NCBI GenBank assembly: GCA_964480775.1
Contig: CAYZRF010000008.1
Span: forward strand, 30,001-62,000
Source of the DNA: an uncultured Nitrososphaerota archaeon
GTDB lineage: Archaea > Korarchaeota > Korarchaeia > Korarchaeales > Korarchaeaceae
Reading direction: 5' to 3'
DNA length: 32,000 nt
The notes beneath the pieces are model-generated. The model was not told where the DNA came from. It made no database searches and saw nothing but the letters and a program-made list of their open reading frames with translations. The position numbers and the translations under genes are program-made. This document shows, in pieces, positions 3,213 through 23,118 of the stretch (position 1 is its first letter; each line of letters begins with the position of its first letter).

Positions 3213-5066
3213 ATGGCTAAAACCACAGAAGATGACGCTTTCTTAGATGCTCTGTTATCTATCCCAGCCATACTCAATTATCGAATATCAAAGGACTCAA
3301 AATACGTCGTTTATACATGGAAAAACATACATCCAAATCTTGATGTCTTTTTAGTCCCTACCGACGGATCATCTAAACCCATTGCTCTAACGGAGACCCC
3401 AGAGGCTACATTTGTCGTCAACTTTGCTCCAGACTCCCGGTCTGTCATAGTTGGAGAAGACAAGAACAGAAACGAACGAGTAAGGTTGTTCGAGGTCAAA
3501 TTGGATGAGCCAAAGAAGATGATTCCTCTGACTCAAGAAAATCCGCCCTTCTTCTTGAGAGGAGGAGCAATGCACCCTAACAGGAAGTGGCTTGTTTATG
3601 GAGCTAACTACGATTTTGAGAGTGGAAAGGAAATTGAGCCTACCTGGGTTTACAGGCAAGATCTACGAACTGGAGAGATTGTAGCTTTGGCAAAACCAAA
3701 GAAACCAACGTGGCTTTATCCTCAGCTTAACAACCAAGGAACATATGTGCTATATAATCGAAAGGAGCTTCATCCCAAGGGAGATCAGTACTGGTTGGTT
3801 GATATCGAAGGAAGAGAGGATAGGGAGATACTAAATTTTGGCCCAAAGGCTAGGATTCAAGCGACTTGGCTGCCTGATGGAAGGCGAGTTGCGTTCATCA
3901 CTGAGACTAAGAACAATAATGTCCAGAAATACTACTCCCTGGGCATCTATGATATAGAACATGAAGAGATAGAGTGGGTGATCGACGACCCAAATAGAAA
4001 TATCGAAAGAATACACAGCCCAATAAACAGCAACCATCTCGTGGTGCTAGAGTACCAAAAAGCAAGGGTAAGACCATCAATAATAGACCTGTCAACCATG
4101 GAGGAATTGATCCTACCAAGAGTTAGAGGTTCTCTTTTACCTATAGGTCCTGTCTCAAATGAAGCATGGGTGGGCTTATATTATTCATCTACTCAGCCAG
4201 ATGAGATCGTCAGGTTTGACGTTAACAACGTCGATGTCTCAAATTTCCAAACATTAACTCACGTTTGGGAGAGAACTGATGTCAAACCAGAACAGCTTAC
4301 TCCAGCAGAGGATTTCGAATGGAAAGCTAAAGATGGTCTTAATATTCACGGATGGCTCTATCGTCCAAAGAAACCCAGTAAGAAAGCTGTAATTTACGTC
4401 CACGGAGGACCGACCGCACACTCTAGAGACGCAATATACCCACAAATTCAGTATCTTGTCTTTAGAGGATTTAATGTCTTAGCTCCAAATTACAGGGGTT
4501 CAACGGGTTACGGGGTGGAATTTGAAGATCTTATCAGGGTTAACGGGTGGGGGAGCGATGAGCAGGAGGACATTTGGGCTGGAATTAGGGCATTGATTGA
4601 GAGAGGAATAGCAGAAGAAGGGAAGATAGGGATTACTGGGACAAGTTATGGTGGTTACTCAAGTTGGTACGCCATTACTAAGGCTCCAGACCTGGTGTCT
4701 GCGGCGGTTCCCATCTGCGGGATGACGGACTTGGTGGTTGATTATGAGACAACTCGTCCTGACTTGCGCCCCTATTCCGAGCAGATGCTTGGAGGTAGCC
4801 CCGAAGAGGTTCCTGAGAGATATTATGAAAGGTCTCCAATAAACTTCATACATCAGATTAGAGGCAAGCTTTTGATCGTCCAAGGAGCTCAGGATCCGAA
4901 TGTAACACCTAAGAACGTGGAGGAAGTAATAAAGAGATTAGATGCAGAGGGAATTGGGTATGAACTGCTGATCTTTGAAGATGAGGGTCATGGTATACTG
5001 AAAACAAAAAATCAAAAGGTACTCTTTAAGAAGATGGCAGATTTCTTCTCTAAAGCCTTGATTTAA
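3213..5066 (+). CDS. S9-family serine peptidase (prolyl oligopeptidase / acylaminoacyl-peptidase type)
   Basis: 617-aa ORF with an N-terminal propeller-like region. The C-terminal alpha/beta hydrolase has GTSYGGYSS (GxSxGG nucleophile), QGAQDPNV (Asp) and EDEGHGI (His). GAGGAGG lies 10-16 nt upstream of the ATG. Confidence 0.9.
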   Translation: MAKTTEDDAFLDALLSIPAILNYRISKDSKYVVYTWKNIHPNLDVFLVPTDGSSKPIALTETPEATFVVNFAPDSRSVIVGEDKNRNERVRLFEVKLDEPKKMIPLTQENPPFFLRGGAMHPNRKWLVYGANYDFESGKEIEPTWVYRQDLRTGEIVALAKPKKPTWLYPQLNNQGTYVLYNRKELHPKGDQYWLVDIEGREDREILNFGPKARIQATWLPDGRRVAFITETKNNNVQKYYSLGIYDIEHEEIEWVIDDPNRNIERIHSPINSNHLVVLEYQKARVRPSIIDLSTMEELILPRVRGSLLPIGPVSNEAWVGLYYSSTQPDEIVRFDVNNVDVSNFQTLTHVWERTDVKPEQLTPAEDFEWKAKDGLNIHGWLYRPKKPSKKAVIYVHGGPTAHSRDAIYPQIQYLVFRGFNVLAPNYRGSTGYGVEFEDLIRVNGWGSDEQEDIWAGIRALIERGIAEEGKIGITGTSYGGYSSWYAITKAPDLVSAAVPICGMTDLVVDYETTRPDLRPYSEQMLGGSPEEVPERYYERSPINFIHQIRGKLLIVQGAQDPNVTPKNVEEVIKRLDAEGIGYELLIFEDEGHGILKTKNQKVLFKKMADFFSKALI

Positions 5067-11356: not shown

Positions 11357-12544
11357 ATGTCTTGGTTTTTGGAAGAGATAGCCGAAGGAGTTACGATGGT
11401 CAGAATCCTGAACACTCAATTTAAGAGGTTTGAAAACTTCTGGCCTATTCCAGACGGAACTTCTTACAATTTCTATGTGATACGAGGATCTGAAGGGGTA
11501 GCGCTCATTGACGGTACAGATGAAAGGGTATCTTCCTATTTTTGGGAGGCACTGAACAAGATCATAGATCCTAAGGAGATAAAGTACGTAGTTATACAAC
11601 ACACAGAGCCTGACCACTCGGGAACAATATCAGAAGTCATGGAAAGAGCTCCCAATGCTGTTTTGCTCGGAACGAAACAAGCATTGCAGATAGGAGAGAA
11701 GTTGGCTGGTTTCCCTTTAAACAGAGCTAGAGAGACCACTGATGGAATGGAGATTAGTTTAGGAGATAAGAAGCTCAAGTTCATCCTTACCCCCTTCGTT
11801 CACTGGCCAGACACAATGATGACGCTACTTGCAGATGAAAGCATCCTATTCACATGCGATATGTTCGGATCGCATGGAGCAAGCAAAGCAGTCTATTATG
11901 ATGAAGATCCAAACGGATTTGATCTTAGAGATTATTATGCCTCGATATTAATGGTCTACTCCAACATGGTGGCAAGAGCCCTTCGGATAGTAAAAGAGAT
12001 ACAACCAAAAGTTATAGCACCATCGCATGGTGCCGTTCACAGAGATGTATCCGTTCCAATTAAGGTTTATGATAGATGGACGTCGTGGAGACCCATGAAA
12101 AAGGCTTTAATCGTCGTTGGCAGCCAGTACGAAAGGGTTACGAGGTTAGCTGAAGCAGCTGCAGAAGGAATTGTCCAAAGCGGATTGGACCCCATTATAA
12201 TGGACGCTGCAGAGGCAGATCCTGATGATTTATTAGCAGAGACGCTAGAGGCCGCCGCATTGCTTGTTGCTACGAGCACACACAATGGGAGGCCTTTTCT
12301 TGGGATAACATTTTATCTAGATCTTCTTGAAGAATACAAACCTAGAAATAAGGTTGCAGCAATTATCGGAACCTACGGGTGGTCTAACGTTGTGCTTAAA
12401 ACTGTTAGACAGAGGCTTGAGGGAATAAAAATACCCGTTGTTAAGGAATTGCCTGTAAGAGGAACCCCGATTGATGAGGAAATTAGAATGGCAAAAGAGT
12501 TAGGAAAAAGCTTAGGTAAGGAAGCATCTAAGCTCTTAGAGTAA
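11357..12544 (+). CDS. fprA: Flavodiiron protein (metallo-beta-lactamase-like diiron domain plus flavodoxin-like domain)
   Basis: 395-aa ORF with diiron ligand motifs HTEPDH, HWPDTM, CDMFGSH and APSHG. The C-terminal flavodoxin-like domain carries GTYGWS. GGTGAT lies 7 nt upstream of the ATG. Confidence 0.85.
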   Translation: MSWFLEEIAEGVTMVRILNTQFKRFENFWPIPDGTSYNFYVIRGSEGVALIDGTDERVSSYFWEALNKIIDPKEIKYVVIQHTEPDHSGTISEVMERAPNAVLLGTKQALQIGEKLAGFPLNRARETTDGMEISLGDKKLKFILTPFVHWPDTMMTLLADESILFTCDMFGSHGASKAVYYDEDPNGFDLRDYYASILMVYSNMVARALRIVKEIQPKVIAPSHGAVHRDVSVPIKVYDRWTSWRPMKKALIVVGSQYERVTRLAEAAAEGIVQSGLDPIIMDAAEADPDDLLAETLEAAALLVATSTHNGRPFLGITFYLDLLEEYKPRNKVAAIIGTYGWSNVVLKTVRQRLEGIKIPVVKELPVRGTPIDEEIRMAKELGKSLGKEASKLLE

Positions 12545-16333: not shown

Positions 16334-16544
16334 AACCTCAAGAGGAACTTAATAACGATGTCGAATGGATGAACTTAAGGCTTAGTAAGGCCATTTTGGC
16401 TGAAGTTAAACCGAGGGGTTCTCCCTCGTCCATATAATGCGGGATGCATGGAGAGGGCCATGAAGCCTCTAACCTTGCTAGTATATCTGCTTTTGGCATT
16501 GCTAATTTACGTGCTAGTTGGCAAGGGTCTTAAGGAGATTTTTT

Positions 16545-16879
16545 AAGACTCCCTGACCGCATCAGGCCGCCTATTTAATAGAAAATCCCATACGAAGGGT
16601 GTTTTTTGGTCAAAAAAGATCTTGAAGAGGGCAGGGATACCTTCCCATAACAGGGCCAGAGAAGGGACAATTTTGGTTGACTTGATTCATGAAGTCAAAC
16701 CCAAGCGAATACTTGAGATCGGTACTTTTATCGAATATTCGACGATTATGATGGGAAAAGAGCTTGGAAGCGAGGCAGAAATAATCACTATAGAGATCGA
16801 TGAGGAAGAAGCAGAGATAGCAAGAAAGAACATAAAAATGGCAATTAATGCGTTAAATTATCGTGAAGAATCTCCTTAA
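16545..16879 (+). pseudogene. Fragment of a class I SAM-dependent O-methyltransferase (COMT/YrrM-like)
   Basis: The open frame encodes only the region around SAM motif I (EGTILVDLIHEVKPKRILEIGTFIEYSTIMM ... IITIEIDEEEAEIARKNI). The N-terminal region of about 25 aa and the C-terminal half are missing. There is no ATG, only TTG at 16622. The usual GxGYS glycine is replaced by Glu. Confidence 0.55.
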
Positions 16880-17135
16880 TCTCCTCTTTTAAGTCGTCTA
16901 ATCTTCTCTTGCAAGCTTCTTCCTGAAGAGGATAGTAAAGGGGGCTCGTCTCTATTTTGCTTATGATTCCCATCAGGTTTTTCTCTGTTAATCCTTTGTC
17001 CAAAAGAGACCTTATTTCTCTGAGAGTCAACTCAATCGTTCTGCCCTCTATGCCTCTAACGTACTCAACTATGATGTTCTCTGCCCTCCTCTTTGCCCAC
17101 TTTTCGTCCCACGTAAACATAATCATTTCAAACAT
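16845..17135 (-). CDS. Hypothetical small protein (96 aa, predicted helical)
   Basis: An ATG-initiated ORF with coding-like composition and no recognisable family. Its 3' end overlaps the methyltransferase fragment. Confidence 0.4.
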   Translation of the reverse strand: MFEMIMFTWDEKWAKRRAENIIVEYVRGIEGRTIELTLREIRSLLDKGLTEKNLMGIISKIETSPLYYPLQEEACKRRLDDLKEEIKEILHDNLTH

Positions 17136-17357
17136 AGTTAAACAAACTTGGATAAAAATGAATCTCCATTCTTTTAGCTTATGCCTCTTGAGTTAGTCAA
17201 TTGTTTTGGAAATTATATATCGCTTAACCCTGTTAATTATGTCAATATCATTTAACACTCTTTCTCGTCAACTGGGTATGTAAAAAGCTTGAAAATACCT
17301 AACACATTTGACTAAGCACCATTGAGATTTGCCAGCTTAAAGAGTAAGACCTAATTC

Positions 17358-17370
17358 ATCAAAAAGGTGC
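17358..17370 (-). terminator. Oligo-T tract downstream of the wHTH gene
   Basis: On the minus strand, CACCTTTTTGATG carries a T5 run about 35 nt after the stop at 17399. Archaeal terminators are typically oligo-T. Confidence 0.25.
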
Positions 17371-17398
17371 TTAAGTTTCCTTAATTCGTTTAAGACCT

Positions 17399-17608
17399 TC
17401 ATGCCTTCAGAGTTATTGTATAAGTGAGGTAGTCGCCACTCCTCTCCGAGCTAACAAGACCTTTCTCCGATAAGTGATTTAGGATCTCTTTCAATCTTTC
17501 ATAAGAGAGGTTAGCCTCACTCATGATCTTAGTAACTCCTGCTTTATTGCTTATCACTTCCAAGACATCGAGTACTATGGAAGCTTGAGAATGATATTTT
17601 CTCCTCAC
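17399..17608 (-). CDS. Small winged-helix DNA-binding protein (COG3432 / HTH_45-like)
   Basis: 69-aa ORF. VLDVLEVISNKAGVTKIMSEANLSYERLKEILNHLSEKGLV matches the pattern of small archaeal wHTH regulators. Its GTG start overlaps the stop of the upstream ORF (GTGA). Confidence 0.7.
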   Translation of the reverse strand: MRRKYHSQASIVLDVLEVISNKAGVTKIMSEANLSYERLKEILNHLSEKGLVSSERSGDYLTYTITLKA

Positions 17609-18255
17609 TCTTTCATCGACCTCTCTACTGCAATGAGCATGGGAATGAACGCAAGAGGTCTGGCGAATTCAGCTAAAAGGTAAAAAGAAAATAGGTTCAG
17701 GAAAAATGAGGCCGCCATAAGGACATGAGAAGTAGCCATGAGGAGAAAAGCAATGAAAAGTAGACAGAGGTGTCCTTTTCTCGATGACGTCTTCCAGATT
17801 ATGTAAGAAAGCGGAATCAGTGAGAAAACATCAGCTAGGATCTTAAATTTGAATTCAGTGAGAGGTATCCACTTCCAAGGAAAGCCTATCAGAGCCTGAA
17901 ACTTGAAGGACTCCATGTATGACAGAGAGATCAGAATGTAGGATATGGGAAAGAGCAATAAATAAAGGGCCCAAGTCCAAGAAGGCTCTTGAAACCAACT
18001 CCATCCAAAACCTCCTTTTGGACCAAGGCATCCCACATGTCTACTGCACCTGCCTACATATGTTGAGATCAGTGTGTAGGAGCCTAGAAGTAGAGCCAGC
18101 GTCAAACTTAGAAATCCTAGAGAGAAAAAGGAAAGGCGTTTAGAGCCCAGAGTGTAGGCTCTAAATGAGTTGAATGTTATCATCCCAGCTATTAGAGCTG
18201 CAAAGAGTTCCATCACACCTATGGCAAAGGCAATCTCTGAGGGGAACAGGATCAT
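17605..18255 (-). CDS. Hypothetical polytopic membrane protein (about 6-7 TM)
   Basis: 216-aa ORF, hydrophobic throughout, with one Cys/Gly/Trp-rich loop (GRCSRHVGCLGPKGGFGWSWF). Its ATG overlaps the stop of the upstream small ORF (ATGA). Confidence 0.6.
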   Translation of the reverse strand: MILFPSEIAFAIGVMELFAALIAGMITFNSFRAYTLGSKRLSFFSLGFLSLTLALLLGSYTLISTYVGRCSRHVGCLGPKGGFGWSWFQEPSWTWALYLLLFPISYILISLSYMESFKFQALIGFPWKWIPLTEFKFKILADVFSLIPLSYIIWKTSSRKGHLCLLFIAFLLMATSHVLMAASFFLNLFSFYLLAEFARPLAFIPMLIAVERSMKE

Positions 18256-18413
18256 CCCTCCGGGCAGTAAGACTTCAATAACGTGCCATCTTCCAGCCCT
18301 ATCTCTTCCACTTTGAGTTCTCTCTTACCCGCGTGCTTATAATGTCCAACAACTTTGATTCTCATCCCTCTTTCGATTGGGAGATCTTGCCATCTTATTA
18401 TCTGATCTCCCAT
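18252..18413 (-). CDS. Small beta-rich ORF (53 aa), not in the supplied ORF track; possibly the displaced C-terminal half of the upstream gene
   Basis: My own translation gives (V)MGDQIIRWQDLPIERGMRIKVVGHYKHAGKRELKVEEIGLEDGTLLKSYCPEG. GTG and ATG starts lie at 18416 and 18413, with GAGGGAAG upstream. The stop overlaps the next ATG. This frame stays open upstream into the 3' end of the 93-aa ORF. Confidence 0.45.
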   Translation of the reverse strand: MGDQIIRWQDLPIERGMRIKVVGHYKHAGKRELKVEEIGLEDGTLLKSYCPEG

Positions 18414-18427
18414 CACCCACTTCCCTC

Positions 18428-18709
18428 TTATAATGAGAGTGATATTGCTCCGTTGTCTAGCTTTAAGAAATACTCGTTTTCATCTACTATGAGCAAACCA
18501 GAGACCTCAACCTCATGACAGTGACTCTCTTCACACTCGCACTCTTGCTCATGCCCGTGGCTCTTTTCCTCATTCCTGCACCCGCATTCATGTTCGTGCT
18601 CTTCCTCATTCTCGCATTCATGATGAGCAGAGATTATTATGGAATTGACTAAGATCAAACTCATCATTGCTACTACAAACCCATAATGAGGTATCCCGTC
18701 TTCACACAT
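18428..18709 (-). CDS. Membrane-anchored His/Cys/Glu-rich putative metal-binding protein
   Basis: 93-aa ORF with an N-terminal hydrophobic anchor (YGFVVAMMSLILVNSIIISA). Residues 29-66 read HHECENEEEHEHECGCRNEEKSHGHEQECECEESHCHE, which contains 8 His and 6 Cys. A beta-like segment VEVSGLLIVDENEYFLKLDNGAISLSL follows. Its ATG lies 1 nt after the stop of the upstream ORF. Confidence 0.6.
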   Translation of the reverse strand: MCEDGIPHYGFVVAMMSLILVNSIIISAHHECENEEEHEHECGCRNEEKSHGHEQECECEESHCHEVEVSGLLIVDENEYFLKLDNGAISLSL

Positions 18710-18710
18710 C

Positions 18711-18977
18711 TTACCCTTTGAAAACTCTCTTCAAGTATGCTAGAAGCGGCCTTCTATTCAAGATCGCATGAATTAGCACTAGACCAACCATTATGTAACC
18801 CGAATAATCATGGATCGATATCCATTGCCATTTCGTAAGGCCCATTATGATAACCCCTCCAGACCCTTTACTAGTTGGAGCAAAGTACAAGATAACCCCA
18901 GATGCAGCCACTAGCACGCCCGTAAACAGCAAGGAAAGAGTGATGAATATTCTTAGCCAAATTGTATTGCTTGACAT
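18711..18977 (-). CDS. DUF4405-like two-TM protein with conserved His residues
   Basis: 88-aa ORF. LLFTGVLVAASGVILYFAP ... GLTKWQWISIHDYSGYIMVGLVLIHAILNRRPLLAYLK matches my recollection of the DUF4405 pattern (GLTKxQW..H ... H..LN..PL..YLK). Confidence 0.6.
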   Translation of the reverse strand: MSSNTIWLRIFITLSLLFTGVLVAASGVILYFAPTSKGSGGVIIMGLTKWQWISIHDYSGYIMVGLVLIHAILNRRPLLAYLKRVFKG

Positions 18978-19124
18978 TTCACATCTCTCATACCAAAAAG
19001 CTCGGCCTAATTAGAGTTATGGTCGAATTGTTCAGAAGAGATGTTAGCTTGATGGAGATCACAATCTCAATAGGTTTCGCTCTTTTGAAAAGTTTTATCT
19101 TTTTATGAAAAGGTCGTTTAGCAG

Positions 19125-20309
19125 GTGACCTTATTGATAGCTCTAAAAGGTGGGAGGATCATAACGATAACAAAGGGGGTTATTGAAGGAGGTACGATCC
19201 TTATAGAAAATGGAAAGATAAAGGCAGTGGGCAAGGAGGTTACGATCCCTTCTGGCACTGAAGTAATAGATGTTACAGGAAAGGTAGTCATGCCAGGAAT
19301 AGTGGATCCACACACCCATGCTGGTATAAGCATGGAGGAGGTTGGTTGGGAGGGTAGAGATCATAACGAGATTACGGATCCGGTGACACCACATCTTAGA
19401 GCATTAGACGCAATAAAACCAGAAGATCACGGTTTTCAAGAGGCAAGGGAGTACGGTATAACAACGGCGTGCGTTGTACCAGGAAGCGCGAATCCAATTG
19501 GTGGTTTGGGCGCAATTGTGAAGTGTTATGGAAACACCGTTGAAGAAATGCTTATAAAAGAGCCTTTCTGTCTGAAGATGGCTTTTGGAGAGAACCCAAG
19601 GAGTGTCTATGGTCAAGGGATGAAAAAAGCCCCTTACACAAGGATGGCCGTCGCAGGTCTCATTAGAGAGTGGCTAACTAAAGCTCAAAATTACATGAAA
19701 AAGAAGGAAGCAGCGAAAAAGAAACCTGAGGATTGGGAAAAATTCGAAAAGGACATAAAGCTAGAGGTCCTAGAGAAACTTCTGAGAAAAGAGTTGGTTG
19801 CTTACCCTCACGCACACACCTCTTACGATATCATGACGGCAATTAGACTTTCGGAGGAGTTTGGATACAAAATGATCCTACAGCATTCAACAGAAGCTCA
19901 TCTAGTGGCAAACGAATTGGCAAAAAGAGACATATGGGCCGTATGTGGTCCCCTTCTAACCGCTAGATATAAGGTTGAGTTAAGGCATAGGACTCCACAA
20001 ACTCCAGCTATACTATACAAAGCAGGGGTAAAAGTGGCTTTCACTGTAGATCACCCTGTTTTACCTCCGAAAATGCTTCCTATAAGTGCAGCCGTTGCAG
20101 TTAGAGAAGGTTTACCTGAAGAAGAGGCCCTAAAAGCTCTAACGATAAATCCTGCTCAATTCCTTGGATTAGATCATAGAATTGGAAGCATAGAGGAGGG
20201 TAAGGACGCAGACCTTGTTGTCATGACCGGACATCCGTTGGACGTGATGAGAAGCAAAGTTGAGATGACCTTCATCGATGGCAAAATAGTTTACGAGACG
20301 AAGAGTTAA
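19125..20309 (+). CDS. Amidohydrolase-superfamily metallohydrolase (COG1228-like)
   Basis: 394-aa ORF with a GTG start. It has VMPGIVDPHTHAG (HxH metal motif), later His residues and a VDHP Asp motif, and a C-terminal GSIEEGKDADLVV. A TATA-like TTTTATCTTTTTATG lies about 20-30 nt upstream, so the transcript may be leaderless. Confidence 0.85.
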   Translation: MTLLIALKGGRIITITKGVIEGGTILIENGKIKAVGKEVTIPSGTEVIDVTGKVVMPGIVDPHTHAGISMEEVGWEGRDHNEITDPVTPHLRALDAIKPEDHGFQEAREYGITTACVVPGSANPIGGLGAIVKCYGNTVEEMLIKEPFCLKMAFGENPRSVYGQGMKKAPYTRMAVAGLIREWLTKAQNYMKKKEAAKKKPEDWEKFEKDIKLEVLEKLLRKELVAYPHAHTSYDIMTAIRLSEEFGYKMILQHSTEAHLVANELAKRDIWAVCGPLLTARYKVELRHRTPQTPAILYKAGVKVAFTVDHPVLPPKMLPISAAVAVREGLPEEEALKALTINPAQFLGLDHRIGSIEEGKDADLVVMTGHPLDVMRSKVEMTFIDGKIVYETKS

Positions 20310-20355
20310 TCTACTACCTTTTTCCCTTTCTTTTTTCAAACCTACTTATCGAGAC

Positions 20356-21387
20356 CTAATTGATCTCTATTAGGTATTTGTCTCTATCGATAATCTTTTT
20401 ACCATCGACCCAGACGGTTGCTTCCTTTATTATACAGTCGATGTGGGTTTTCGACACCCAGTCAGCTCCAGTTTCTTTTGGATAGGGATTACCAAATGCT
20501 AGATGCACTCTAGCCTTCTCATCTTGGAGCAGGATACCTACTAGGGGCATTTCGATTAGTTCTAAGTTTGTAGGTAGGGCTATCTCGCCTGCTTTATTGC
20601 TATTTTCATCGGTCTTAAGATATTCCTTTAGATCTGCCTTTAACTCATTCAATTCGCACTCTATGCTCTCTACATTTGCTCTTGAATCAACTATATCAAT
20701 GTGAACTGGGGTATCTCTATCAGCCTCTGGCCTTGTTAATGTCCCATATTTCTTTGAGAACCAGTCTCCTAGTTCATCTGCAACAATATGGCCGTTTGCA
20801 TTGAATGGTGCTGTAAATATCTCTCCTTCGGGTAGATTTCCCCACTCTCCTTTCTTGTGGTATATCCCATCACATGGTTTCCATCTCCATTCAGGATTTA
20901 GCTCAATTTGAAGGTTTGTTCCTGCCGGGTTTCTTACTTCAAGCTTCTTTGCATTTTTTAAGATCTTTTCCAACTTTTTTGTAAAGGATGAAATCCTCTT
21001 GTAATCAGAACACATTCCCTGTTCCATTAAGAGCTTAGTAACTCCTGGCATGTGAGCATGCCTTGCATATTTAGTTGCAAGCAATCTGAAAGACCTTCTC
21101 ATAGGAAGTTCGCCTTTCTTGCTTTCTGCAGCCCAGAAAGTTACGTTGGCCCAAGGTACTGCCTTTTCGATTTTCTCAGGAAGCTCCGTCATGGGTCTTT
21201 CTCCGTAGTCTTCGAGAACATAGAGCTTGACATGTTGGGTTACTTCCAGCGCAGCTCTTCTTATGGCATCGCCAACTTCATATTGGAGCCTGTCTGTCAC
21301 TATTAGAACGTGTTCCCCTGGTTTAACCCCCATACAAACTTTTACAGCGTTTTTGGCCCCTTCATCCAATGTTCCCATTTTATTCAC
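20356..21387 (-). CDS. M29-type (AmpS/aminopeptidase T-like, COG2309) aminopeptidase
   Basis: 343-aa ORF. The N-terminus reads GAKNAVKVCMGVKPGEHVLIVTD and the C-terminus reads LLQDEKARVHLAFGNPY...SKTHIDCI, both typical of this family. Confidence 0.75.
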   Translation of the reverse strand: MNKMGTLDEGAKNAVKVCMGVKPGEHVLIVTDRLQYEVGDAIRRAALEVTQHVKLYVLEDYGERPMTELPEKIEKAVPWANVTFWAAESKKGELPMRRSFRLLATKYARHAHMPGVTKLLMEQGMCSDYKRISSFTKKLEKILKNAKKLEVRNPAGTNLQIELNPEWRWKPCDGIYHKKGEWGNLPEGEIFTAPFNANGHIVADELGDWFSKKYGTLTRPEADRDTPVHIDIVDSRANVESIECELNELKADLKEYLKTDENSNKAGEIALPTNLELIEMPLVGILLQDEKARVHLAFGNPYPKETGADWVSKTHIDCIIKEATVWVDGKKIIDRDKYLIEIN

Positions 21388-21477
21388 CTCAAAATAATTT
21401 CAGAGAGAATAAATTAATCATTACCGCCCATCAGTTCTGTTTATCTCTTTCCTCCGTTCCAATGCCCGGGTGGTAGC

Positions 21478-23118
21478 TTGTCCAGTAAGCCCAAGATTCT
21501 AATTGAGAATGGCATTATTATGGATGGAACGGGTAATCCATGGTTTAGAGGAGACATTGCTGTAGAAGACGGGAAAATTTCAAAAATAGGAAGAGCAAAG
21601 GACTTTCAAGCGGATATAAGGATAGATGCAACGAACTTCGTTGTCTGCCCTGGATTTATTGACATACACGGGCATAGCGACTTAGCTGTGATTGTAGATC
21701 CAAAAGCTGAGAGTAAGGTTATGCAAGGAGTTACAACCGAGCTTGGAGGGAACTGCGGTCATTCTCCAGCTCCATTGGAAGGATATGCTCTTGAAGAGGA
21801 GAAAAAATCTGCAGAAAGGTATGGAATAGAGATAGACTGGAGGACTTTTGGCGAGTATCTCGATAGGATAGATAGGCAAGGTTGCTCAATTAACTTCGCA
21901 TGTCTTCTCGGTCATGGAACCATTAGGTGGTGCGTGGTAGGTCCAGATGACAGAGATCCAACAGAGGAGGAGATGGAGAGGATGAAAGAACTAGTCGACA
22001 AGTCGATGAGAGAAGGGGCGTTTGGACTATCAACAGGGCTCATGTATGCACCAGGATGCTATGCAAGCACTGAAGAAATCATAGAACTCGCTAAAGTTGT
22101 GGCTAAACATGGAGGGATTTACGCATCTCACATAAGGAGAAGAGGTGAGGGTATAAGGCGCTGGGGACTAATAACTCCCAGAATCGACACCCTCGTAGAG
22201 GCGGTAAGAGAAACCATTGAAGTAGGGGAGAGAGCTGGTCTTCCTGCTCAGATAAGCCATCACAAAGCCATGGGTAGGGTAAACTGGGGTAAGGTAAAGA
22301 AAACACTTGCCATGGTTGAAGATGCCAGGCTGAGAGGCGTTGATGTTACTTGTGACCAATATCCATACACTGCAGCAAGCAGCAGCCTAGCTTCAGCATT
22401 TCCAGCGTGGGCTAGGGCAGGGGGAACGAAGAAGCTAATCGAGAGGCTGATGAATCCAGAAACGAGAGCAAAGATAAAAGAGGAGACTATTGAAAACTTG
22501 GAGGGCATAGGAGCTGAATATGGATGGGGAGATGCCTATATCTCTTACCTTAAATCAGAAAAGAACGCACATCTAATAGGTAAAAGCCTCAAAGAAGCTG
22601 CAGAGCTGCTTGGAAAAGATCCGTTTGAAGCTGCGGCCGATCTTCTGATAGAAGAGGAAGGCTCTGTTGGAATAGTCTATTTCGCAATGTGCGAAGAGGA
22701 TGTCGAAACCGTAATGAGGAACAGAAACGTTATGGTAGGATCCGATGGCTATGCTCTCTCACCAAAAGGAATTCTCGGAAGAGGAAGGCCCCACCCAAGG
22801 AGCTATGGAACCTACCCAAGGGTGTTGGGGGTCTATGTAAGGGAAAAGAGAATTATACCTTGGGAAGAAGCCATAAGAAAGATGACTTCCATGCCTGCTC
22901 AGAAACTAGGGCTCTTCGATAGGGGGATCATAAGGCCAGGGATGCGTGCTGACATAGTTGTATTTAATCCGAGGACAATCAAGGATAGAGCTACTTTTGA
23001 TAATCCACATCGATTCCCTCTAGGCATCGAATACGTTCTAGTGAACGGAGAGATCGTAGTCGAGAATGGAAATCATACGGGTTTGACTCCAGGAACAGTA
23101 TTGAGGCATAGAGCATGA
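21478..23118 (+). CDS. N-acyl-D-amino-acid deacylase (D-aminoacylase) family amidohydrolase
   Basis: 546-aa ORF with a TTG start. Family motifs are PGFIDIHGHSD, GGIYASHIR, ISHHKA, DQYPY, GSDG and HPRSYGTYPR. Confidence 0.85.
   Translation: MSSKPKILIENGIIMDGTGNPWFRGDIAVEDGKISKIGRAKDFQADIRIDATNFVVCPGFIDIHGHSDLAVIVDPKAESKVMQGVTTELGGNCGHSPAPLEGYALEEEKKSAERYGIEIDWRTFGEYLDRIDRQGCSINFACLLGHGTIRWCVVGPDDRDPTEEEMERMKELVDKSMREGAFGLSTGLMYAPGCYASTEEIIELAKVVAKHGGIYASHIRRRGEGIRRWGLITPRIDTLVEAVRETIEVGERAGLPAQISHHKAMGRVNWGKVKKTLAMVEDARLRGVDVTCDQYPYTAASSSLASAFPAWARAGGTKKLIERLMNPETRAKIKEETIENLEGIGAEYGWGDAYISYLKSEKNAHLIGKSLKEAAELLGKDPFEAAADLLIEEEGSVGIVYFAMCEEDVETVMRNRNVMVGSDGYALSPKGILGRGRPHPRSYGTYPRVLGVYVREKRIIPWEEAIRKMTSMPAQKLGLFDRGIIRPGMRADIVVFNPRTIKDRATFDNPHRFPLGIEYVLVNGEIVVENGNHTGLTPGTVLRHRA

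Follow-up and report, generated by a model that had tools for sequence, protein, structure and literature searches.

Five short open reading frames (ORFs), all on the minus strand, lie side by side in a 32-kb stretch of archaeal DNA (contig CAYZRF010000008.1; the whole stretch is referred to as the window) and face an amidohydrolase gene across a divergent intergenic region (Table 1). An initial annotation described them as a cassette of five genes for membrane, His/Cys-rich and winged-helix (wHTH) proteins. All five ORFs were recovered at the positions given there, as were the junctions between them, namely, from ORF1 to ORF5, TAA-G-ATG, a 14-nt spacer carrying GAGGGAAG, an ATGA overlap and a GTGA overlap. 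As judged by sequence comparison, the ORFs are real genes and not chance ORFs, since other Korarchaeota have homologues arranged in the same order and the ratios of nonsynonymous to synonymous substitution rates (dN/dS) range from 0.07 to 0.24. The assignments as DUF4405, anchored His-rich, multi-pass membrane and wHTH proteins likewise hold. The division into five separate genes, however, does not: ORF2 and ORF3 together represent one frameshifted gene, which leaves a unit of four genes.

Table 1. Positions of the ORFs, of the genes to which they belong and of two non-coding segments beside them.
Feature	Position in the window	Strand	Description
ORF1	18711-18977	-	88 aa
ORF2	18428-18709	-	93 aa
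ORF3	18252-18416	-	53/54 aa
ORF4	17605-18255	-	216 aa
ORF5	17399-17608	-	69 aa
Gene 1	18711-18977	-	intact, 88 aa; DUF4405 protein with two transmembrane (TM) helices, half a cytochrome-b unit
Gene 2	18252-18709	-	broken by a 1-nt deletion near 18446-18449; pieces are ORF2 and ORF3
Gene 3	17605-18255	-	216 aa, six helices; ORF intact, constraint recently relaxed
Gene 4	17337-17608	-	HTH_45/Sso10a-like winged helix; 1-nt deletion near 17408
Deletion scar	17136-17336	.	about 200 nt, non-coding; about 6.9 kb (ThiS to MocA) at this place in L021
Divergent intergenic region	18978-19124	.	147 nt between gene 1 and the amidohydrolase gene; presumed promoter/operator

Lesions in genes 2 and 4

The orthologues of gene 2 are single proteins of 166–169 aa and 150 aa. 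In L001, a locus from a Korarchaeota metagenome-assembled genome (MAG), the corresponding protein of 169 aa aligns to ORF2 and then, across the junction, to ORF3, and an alignment of the DNA with L001 contains one 1-nt gap in the window at the site of the deletion. The frame of ORF3 is open upstream to 18479 and reads NITLIIRGKWVMGDQIIRW, matching VTLILKGLWEFEEELLEW of the L001 orthologue. Because this frame continues upstream into ORF2, the GAGGGAAG spacer was once coding sequence (R-G-K) and did not evolve as a ribosome-binding site; the junction, previously interpreted as co-translational, is the product of a 1-nt lesion. ORF3 carries neither a signal nor an anchor of its own. Programmed frameshifting or readthrough at the junction was considered and rejected, as no slippery heptamer precedes the stop and the difference from L001 is a plain single-base deletion.

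An identical lesion is found in L002, a 924-nt metagenome contig from JGI with 9 substitutions relative to the window in 919 positions. Moreover, the ENA-derived protein P0005 ends at the same stop as ORF2 of the window. Since P0005 and the diverged L002 carry it too, the lesion in gene 2 is real and not an assembly error.

In gene 4, alignment of the DNA likewise reveals a 1-nt gap, and tblastn returns the gene as two high-scoring segment pairs in different frames. The present ORF5 lacks the C-terminal 21 residues, which form a helix, so that 69 aa are left of an ancestral 90 aa. The out-of-frame tail still encodes EGMKVLNELRKLKHLFDELGLTL followed by a stop (17337–17408, stop at 17337–17339) and is 87% identical to the tail of the orthologue. 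This tail is overlapped by a 16-nt inverted repeat (17313–17328 and 17358–17373) with 81% complementarity and a loop of 29 nt.

Predicted properties of the four gene products

The product of gene 1 matches Pfam family DUF4405 (PF14358) with 50.1 bits (E = 4e-13, cut-off 26.7) over positions 1–65 of the 66 in the profile, and its orthologues score alike. His56 and His70, both situated in the second TM helix and 14 residues apart, are invariant in four lineages. The DUF4405 profile overlaps Ni_hydr_CYTB, the family of the cytochrome-b subunits of hydrogenase and formate dehydrogenase. According to Makarova et al., the archaeal two-TM form corresponds to half of cytochrome b561 (PMC5898192). Binding of haem b has been shown by experiment only for FezC and a DUF4405 protein from Oscillospiraceae, and homodimerisation has been proposed to form the haem sites of FezC (PMC11334425). 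By analogy, gene 1 is a predicted small cytochrome b of the haem type, with haem binding being predicted for this subfamily. With a dN/dS of 0.16 against the orthologue in L008, a relative from the window's clade, DUF4405 alone among the cassette genes in the window still looks constrained.

Gene 2 is predicted to comprise an N-terminal membrane anchor, a low-complexity linker rich in His, Cys and Glu and an OB-fold domain at the C-terminus. The initial annotation correctly counted 8 His and 6 Cys, which are accompanied by 15 Glu within a 39-residue stretch of ORF2. In the AlphaFold2 (AF2) model of the orthologue P0003, an anchor helix and a disordered linker are joined to a β-domain with a predicted local distance difference test score (pLDDT) of 85–90. 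Nearly all of the top 50 Foldseek hits of this domain are OB folds (IF1, SSB/RPA, CcmE, C-domain of NlpE). At the level of sequence, ORF2 and ORF3 match no family in Pfam or NCBIfam profile searches, and gene 2, including its orthologues, yields no Pfam family at E up to 5. The same limit applies to two candidate identities: TOBE/Mop, a molybdate-binding OB fold suggested by the molybdenum cofactor (Moco) context described below, gave no Pfam match at E up to 5 and was rejected, and neither CcmE nor CusF was matched in Pfam or NCBIfam at E up to 5, CcmE being one OB fold among many in the Foldseek result. The sole match among PDB sequences is the periplasmic zinc-binding protein PA4063 (E = 0.065), which falls on the low-complexity linker and is driven by composition.

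For gene 3, the AF2 model displays a six-helix bundle (pLDDT 72.9, predicted template modelling score 0.72). Of the 6–7 TM helices and the Cys/Gly/Trp loop initially described for this protein, six helices are thus found in the model, whereas the loop is not kept in homologues. Its cysteines are not conserved, and C76 is replaced by Tyr even in L002, the homologue of which is 97% identical. As the Cys residues of the His-rich stretch of gene 2 are not conserved among homologues either, the earlier proposal of metal binding through cysteines is not sustained. A known fold could not be assigned to the six-helix model, since Foldseek returned only generic helical bundles (G-protein-coupled receptors, ferritins, rhodopsins) and no PDB match below E = 0.3; an internal duplication of 3+3 helices was rejected as well (hhalign probability 1.5%).

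The gene 3 family is very rare. Two homologues were found among 5.8 billion clusters, those of L002 and of L001 (52% identical), and an exhaustive HMMER search with the six-TM profile retrieved 4 proteins among 1.84 billion representatives. P0007, a distant match to the profile over its full length (E = 5.5e-8), is present in L003 and L004 and, as P0010, in L016. A scan of GTDB species representatives with the six-TM profile, which used narrow search patterns, gave no relative, and a scan of metagenome contigs with the six-TM alignment returned only fragmentary loci of the P0008 type. These P0008-type loci constitute a fourth lineage (L013, positions 4120–4716; also L005–L007 and L014), in which the six-TM gene is broken into an N-terminal half of 110 aa and a C-terminal piece of 61 aa that adjoin a gene for the large subunit of RuBisCO, without other cassette genes. 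Similarity to DUF7521 (PF24365) extends over residues 14–60 of gene 3 with 20.6 bits, short of the cut-off of 27. Matches to this family are found over the first helices of all 8 members of the gene 3 family (best E = 1.6e-5).

Gene 3 and gene 4 are adjacent in the window, with start and stop codons sharing the GTGA overlap. A comparable arrangement occurs on four haloarchaeal plasmids (L017–L020), in which the stop and start codons of a DUF7521 gene and a wHTH gene touch or overlap. The pair in L017 (23141–23825) is HVO_B0192/B0193 of the Haloferax volcanii plasmid pHV3; in H. volcanii, the wHTH–DUF7521 pair is strongly co-regulated and up-regulated in a qarA mutant. Since every one of these haloarchaeal DUF7521 genes abuts a gene for a winged-helix protein, the pairing of a membrane protein with a wHTH protein appears to be a recurrent, uncharacterised archaeal module.

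ORF5 of gene 4 matches HTH_45 (PF14947) with 49.5 bits (E = 4.5e-13, cut-off 25.5). Of the 77 profile positions, the protein of the window covers 3–59 and the intact 90-aa orthologue of L001 covers 1–75; intact orthologues in general are 90–93 aa long and possess the C-terminal helix. In Sso10a, this helix forms a dimerising coiled coil. The score against the NCBIfam model for Sso10a (NF053610) is 54.3 bits and stays below the cut-off of 60, while that against ArsR/SmtB (NF033788), 19.9 bits with a cut-off of 55, reflects generic winged-helix similarity. The PDB entries 1r7j and 4hw0 are weak matches.

The operon and its surroundings in other Korarchaeota

The initial annotation had raised the question of whether linkage of the genes extends to other archaeal genomes. 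Their order is shared by three Korarchaeota lineages, represented by the window, by L001 together with L021–L023 and by L003, L004 and L016, and the latter two lineages are intact. L001 encodes a DUF4405 protein, the 169-aa protein, a membrane protein of 202 aa and an HTH_45 protein of 90 aa. In L003, L004 and L016, DUF4405 is followed by a 150-aa protein with an anchor, a linker of His and acidic residues and a β-domain, by the six-TM protein and by an HTH_45 protein of 93 aa. All named carriers are Candidatus Korarchaeota MAGs, and the four-gene operon is restricted to Korarchaeota. A scan of GTDB species representatives with the DUF4405 subfamily, again with narrow search patterns, returned two loci only, L015 and L016; because the patterns were narrow, the GTDB scans are no measure of the true distribution. 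The cassette adjoins an amidohydrolase gene in the window as well as in L001 and thus occupies a syntenic position.

Between L003 and L016, dN/dS amounts to 0.18 for the six-TM gene and 0.07 for the wHTH gene. Since both genes are under purifying selection, the intact copies represent functional genes. The long-term dN/dS between the window and L001 is 0.24. In the same pair of loci (L003 7252–8899 and L016 3992–5639), the DUF4405 and OB genes are near-identical, with 0 synonymous and 7 nonsynonymous differences, and stand beside six-TM and wHTH genes with a dS of 0.3–0.8. This mosaic could be the result of recent recombination, diversifying selection or MAG chimerism.

Among the nearest relatives of the window, which have amidohydrolases at least 90% identical to that of the window, presence of the cassette varies. 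In L008 and L009, genes 2–4 are lost; DUF4405 is kept and followed by residues 1–29 of ThiS joined to residues 107–210 of MocA. In L010–L012, genes 1–4 are lost, and residues 1–65 of ThiS remain together with frameshifted pieces of MocA. The different points at which the ThiS and MocA fragments are joined suggest that the deletions in L008 and L010 were independent. The window and L008 become homologous again 19 nt past the DUF4405 stop, where an ORF of L008 begins with MCKG, compared with MCEDG at the start of ORF2 in the window. On account of this residual homology, the cassette was ancestral to the clade of the window.

ThiS and MocA belong to a larger cluster. In L021–L023, the cassette is followed on the same strand by ThiS, by the large, FAD and 2Fe-2S subunits of an enzyme of the xanthine dehydrogenase/CO dehydrogenase (XDH/CODH) family, by XdhC, MoeA and a MocA-like transferase and by a gene of 84 aa. 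None of the proteins from ThiS to MocA of L021 was found in the window by tblastn. The 84-aa gene (g84) has an orthologue in the window at 16845–17135 (tblastn match at 16875–17120, 71% identity). The link to XDH is suggestive: cluster and cassette are adjacent in one lineage, a second retains traces, and both have been lost in the clade of the window. Cytochrome b561 is an acceptor of CO dehydrogenase. Twin-arginine N-termini, as expected for export of the XDH-type enzyme by the twin-arginine translocation (Tat) pathway, were not found, and a literature search returned nothing on xanthine dehydrogenase of Korarchaeota.

On the other side of the cassette, two amidohydrolase genes flank an M29/NicX-like gene (19125–23118), and all three are conserved in relatives too. 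These genes and the lost XDH cluster hint at a former locus for the catabolism of purines or N-heterocycles. The flanking genes align with full-length orthologues, free of frameshifts, and two methyltransferase genes are partly deleted in the window. An 85-aa O-methyltransferase ORF at 16622–16879 (within 16334–16900, plus strand) is the remnant of a deletion. The alignment of the window with L008 extends up to position 2846 of L008, in the first methyltransferase gene, jumps to 3451–3659, in the second, and then continues at 4777. About 0.6 kb and about 1.1 kb are thereby missing from the window, including a Zn-ribbon-like gene of 114–120 aa. The intergenic region between DUF4405 and amidohydrolase aligns with L008 and L001 and contains A/T-rich, TATA-like blocks. 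A palindrome at 19055–19068, GAGATTGTGATCTC, is partly conserved, the aligned segment of L008 containing a related one, AGATATCT, and could represent a possible operator. Further away and unrelated to the cassette, a flavodiiron-type protein with ODP metallo-beta-lactamase and flavodoxin domains is encoded at 11357–12544 (plus strand).

State of the window copy and comparison with known systems

Taken together, the five ORFs probably represent a degenerating, frameshift-damaged copy of a four-gene membrane operon found only in Korarchaeota, for whose intact copies a mechanism of two modules may be proposed. The copy in the window is more likely decaying than working, because two of its four genes are frameshifted, its recent changes are all nonsynonymous and its relatives have deleted cassette genes. 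All 9 of the nucleotide changes between the window and L002 are nonsynonymous and affect 8 codons, six in the six-TM gene and two in the wHTH gene. The probability that 8 of 8 codon changes are nonsynonymous is 0.12 if evolution is neutral and falls to 1.4e-3 at an omega of 0.24. In gene 3, the 6 nonsynonymous changes (0 synonymous) include the helix-breaking L166P and C76Y. Most likely, the cassette in the window no longer works as a unit. The observation of the initial annotation that this is the least conserved part of the window is borne out by comparison with relatives.

Several points weigh against this interpretation. The argument for relaxed selection rests on 8 codon changes only, and the frameshift in the wHTH gene is known from one assembly. 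The lesion in gene 2 is fixed in several haplotypes with both pieces open, and this would also be compatible with a fission that is tolerated or functional. With regard to the intact operon, the Foldseek E-values behind the OB fold are weak (0.01–0.1, with probabilities up to 1.0 and a TM-score on the target of about 0.6), and the underlying model was built from a 5-sequence alignment. The linker varies between His/Cys/Glu in the window, His/Met/Cys in the L001 type and His plus acidic residues without Cys in the L003 type. Similarity of gene 3 to DUF7521 remains below the Pfam threshold in all members. Finally, a redox link to XDH is not general, as the 8 kb read to each side of the cassette in the L003/L016 lineage contain no XDH genes.

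Of the alternatives, a tolerated fission fares best, although it is still unlikely. According to this explanation a reduced cassette works, with the product of ORF2 alone acting as a metal-binding peptide, the truncated wHTH protein binding DNA and the DUF4405 and six-TM proteins unchanged. Such a state would account for a gene 2 lesion that is common to at least 2–3 haplotypes, diverged since, without further stops, as well as for the purifying selection on DUF4405. The linker of the window, being more Cys-rich than those of relatives, could reflect a changed role, and with 8 changes neutrality and mild positive selection cannot be told apart. However, each piece keeps half of the predicted OB fold, a helix-breaking substitution and loss of the loop Cys occurred in gene 3 within the lineage, the sister lineages deleted the same genes outright and the window has lost the XDH cluster found alongside the cassette in the sister clade.

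It is improbable that the five ORFs constitute, as first proposed, a working, translationally coupled and self-regulated envelope module which handles metal or redox signals via the His/Cys ectodomain and the Cys/Gly/Trp loop. ORF2 and ORF3 being one frameshifted gene, with ORF3 devoid of signal and anchor, such a module would have to operate with a wHTH protein deprived of its C-terminal helix and with linker and loop cysteines that are not conserved (C76 is Tyr in L002), while recent changes are all nonsynonymous. The five ORFs are nevertheless open and tightly packed, DUF4405 and wHTH are confirmed by profile, the linker does contain 8 His and 6 Cys, linkage is kept in other genomes and the linker has its composition-driven match to PA4063. 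As a description of the intact copies, an envelope module for metal or redox functions with its own regulator may still be the best guess; as a description of a working unit in this window, it probably does not hold.

Errors in sequencing or assembly, behind which the window would encode an intact four-gene operon, are very improbable. Both lesions are single-base deletions, and in the case of the wHTH gene, where only one assembly is available, the 87% identity of the out-of-frame tail would agree with an error of this kind. However, the gene 2 lesion recurs identically in L002 and P0005, the flanking genes are full-length without frameshifts, and real deletions (methyltransferase genes, XDH cluster) are located in the same region. 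That the ORFs belong to an accessory island, be it for anti-virus defence, a toxin–antitoxin pair of membrane toxin and wHTH antitoxin or the remnant of a mobile element, is hardly credible and was rejected, since the patchy presence among genomes with amidohydrolases at least 90% identical is explained by deletions that left remnants, and the very rare six-TM family and the small wHTH gene overlapping a membrane-protein gene are set against PADLOC and PHROGs searches that match nothing beyond a generic winged helix, the lack of integrase, repeat or tRNA features, an unremarkable GC content and the syntenic position across lineages beside the amidohydrolase gene (window and L001).

Returning to a degenerating copy of a Korarchaeota operon as the preferred explanation, the intact copies would join two modules, the first formed by DUF4405 and the His-rich OB protein and the second by the DUF7521-like protein and the wHTH protein. 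In the first module, DUF4405 would form a dimer with two b haems that transfers electrons through the membrane. In the XDH-linked lineage, these electrons would be supplied by the cytoplasmic molybdo-flavoenzyme; they would be exchanged with a metal ion or another redox substrate held by the extracellular OB protein. The second module could act as a membrane sensor with a partner regulator that controls the operon, as the tight haloarchaeal pairing suggests. It appears doubtful that the intact unit as a whole is an undescribed minimal system for exporting or sensing electrons, in which a cytochrome b dimer would link cytoplasmic redox enzymes, for instance the neighbouring molybdenum hydroxylase, with a metal ion kept outside the cell by the OB protein, and a DUF7521-type protein would signal the state of the system to the wHTH protein by direct contact; a first function for the widespread archaeal DUF7521–wHTH pairs would follow from it. 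If the intact operon works in the proposed way, its minimal DUF4405 cytochrome would have a new extracytoplasmic partner, and these pairs would gain a first functional handle, in a phylum with almost no experimental genetics. For annotation, the lesson is that a seemingly five-gene cassette consists of four genes, two of them frameshifted, and should be recorded as a decaying locus.

As initially suggested, profile and fold searches place the set in no characterised system. Comparison is nevertheless possible for its individual parts. Like Sso10a and other HTH_45 proteins, gene 4 exceeds the HTH_45 threshold and has a C-terminal helix in intact orthologues; in contrast to Sso10a, it stays under the NCBIfam cut-off, and the copy in the window lacks this helix. 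As a predicted anchored, extracytoplasmic OB barrel with a flexible His-rich segment, gene 2 would resemble OB-fold carriers such as CusF, CcmE and the C-domain of NlpE and His-rich periplasmic metal binders such as PA4063. However, Foldseek puts IF1 and SSB-type OB folds first. With the haloarchaeal wHTH and DUF7521 pairs, gene 3 shares DUF7521-like first three helices and the abutting gene for a winged-helix regulator. It differs from them by three extra helices and by the reversed order, with the membrane protein first, and the regulator is of the HTH_45 type, whereas theirs belongs to HTH_20.

The closest likeness of gene 1 is with DUF4405/arCOG04002, which includes the flavinylation-associated DUF4405 proteins and FezC of ferrosomes, given that it passes the Pfam threshold and carries two His on one helix. 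As in FezC, a two-TM unit would need homodimerisation to form haem sites. In Thermococci, the neighbours of arCOG04002 include an ArsR-type regulator, secreted proteins and an aldehyde oxidoreductase (PMC5898192), a loose parallel to the wHTH protein, anchored OB protein and XDH-family enzyme considered here. The cytochrome-b subunits of dehydrogenases (Ni_hydr_CYTB: HyaC, FdoI) are comparable in that a gene for a b-type cytochrome adjoins a multi-subunit oxidoreductase, as in L021–L023. However, these subunits have four helices and gene 1 has two, the XDH-type subunits carry no export signal, and the XDH link is absent in the L003/L016 lineage. In contrast to the flavinylation and ferrosome systems, no ApbE, FMN-binding domain, ferritin-like or Fez gene is present nearby. 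The partners of gene 1 set it apart from all described DUF4405 systems, being a His-rich OB protein and a DUF7521-like six-TM protein, and the novelty lies at the level of families, in a new combination around known, poorly understood parts.

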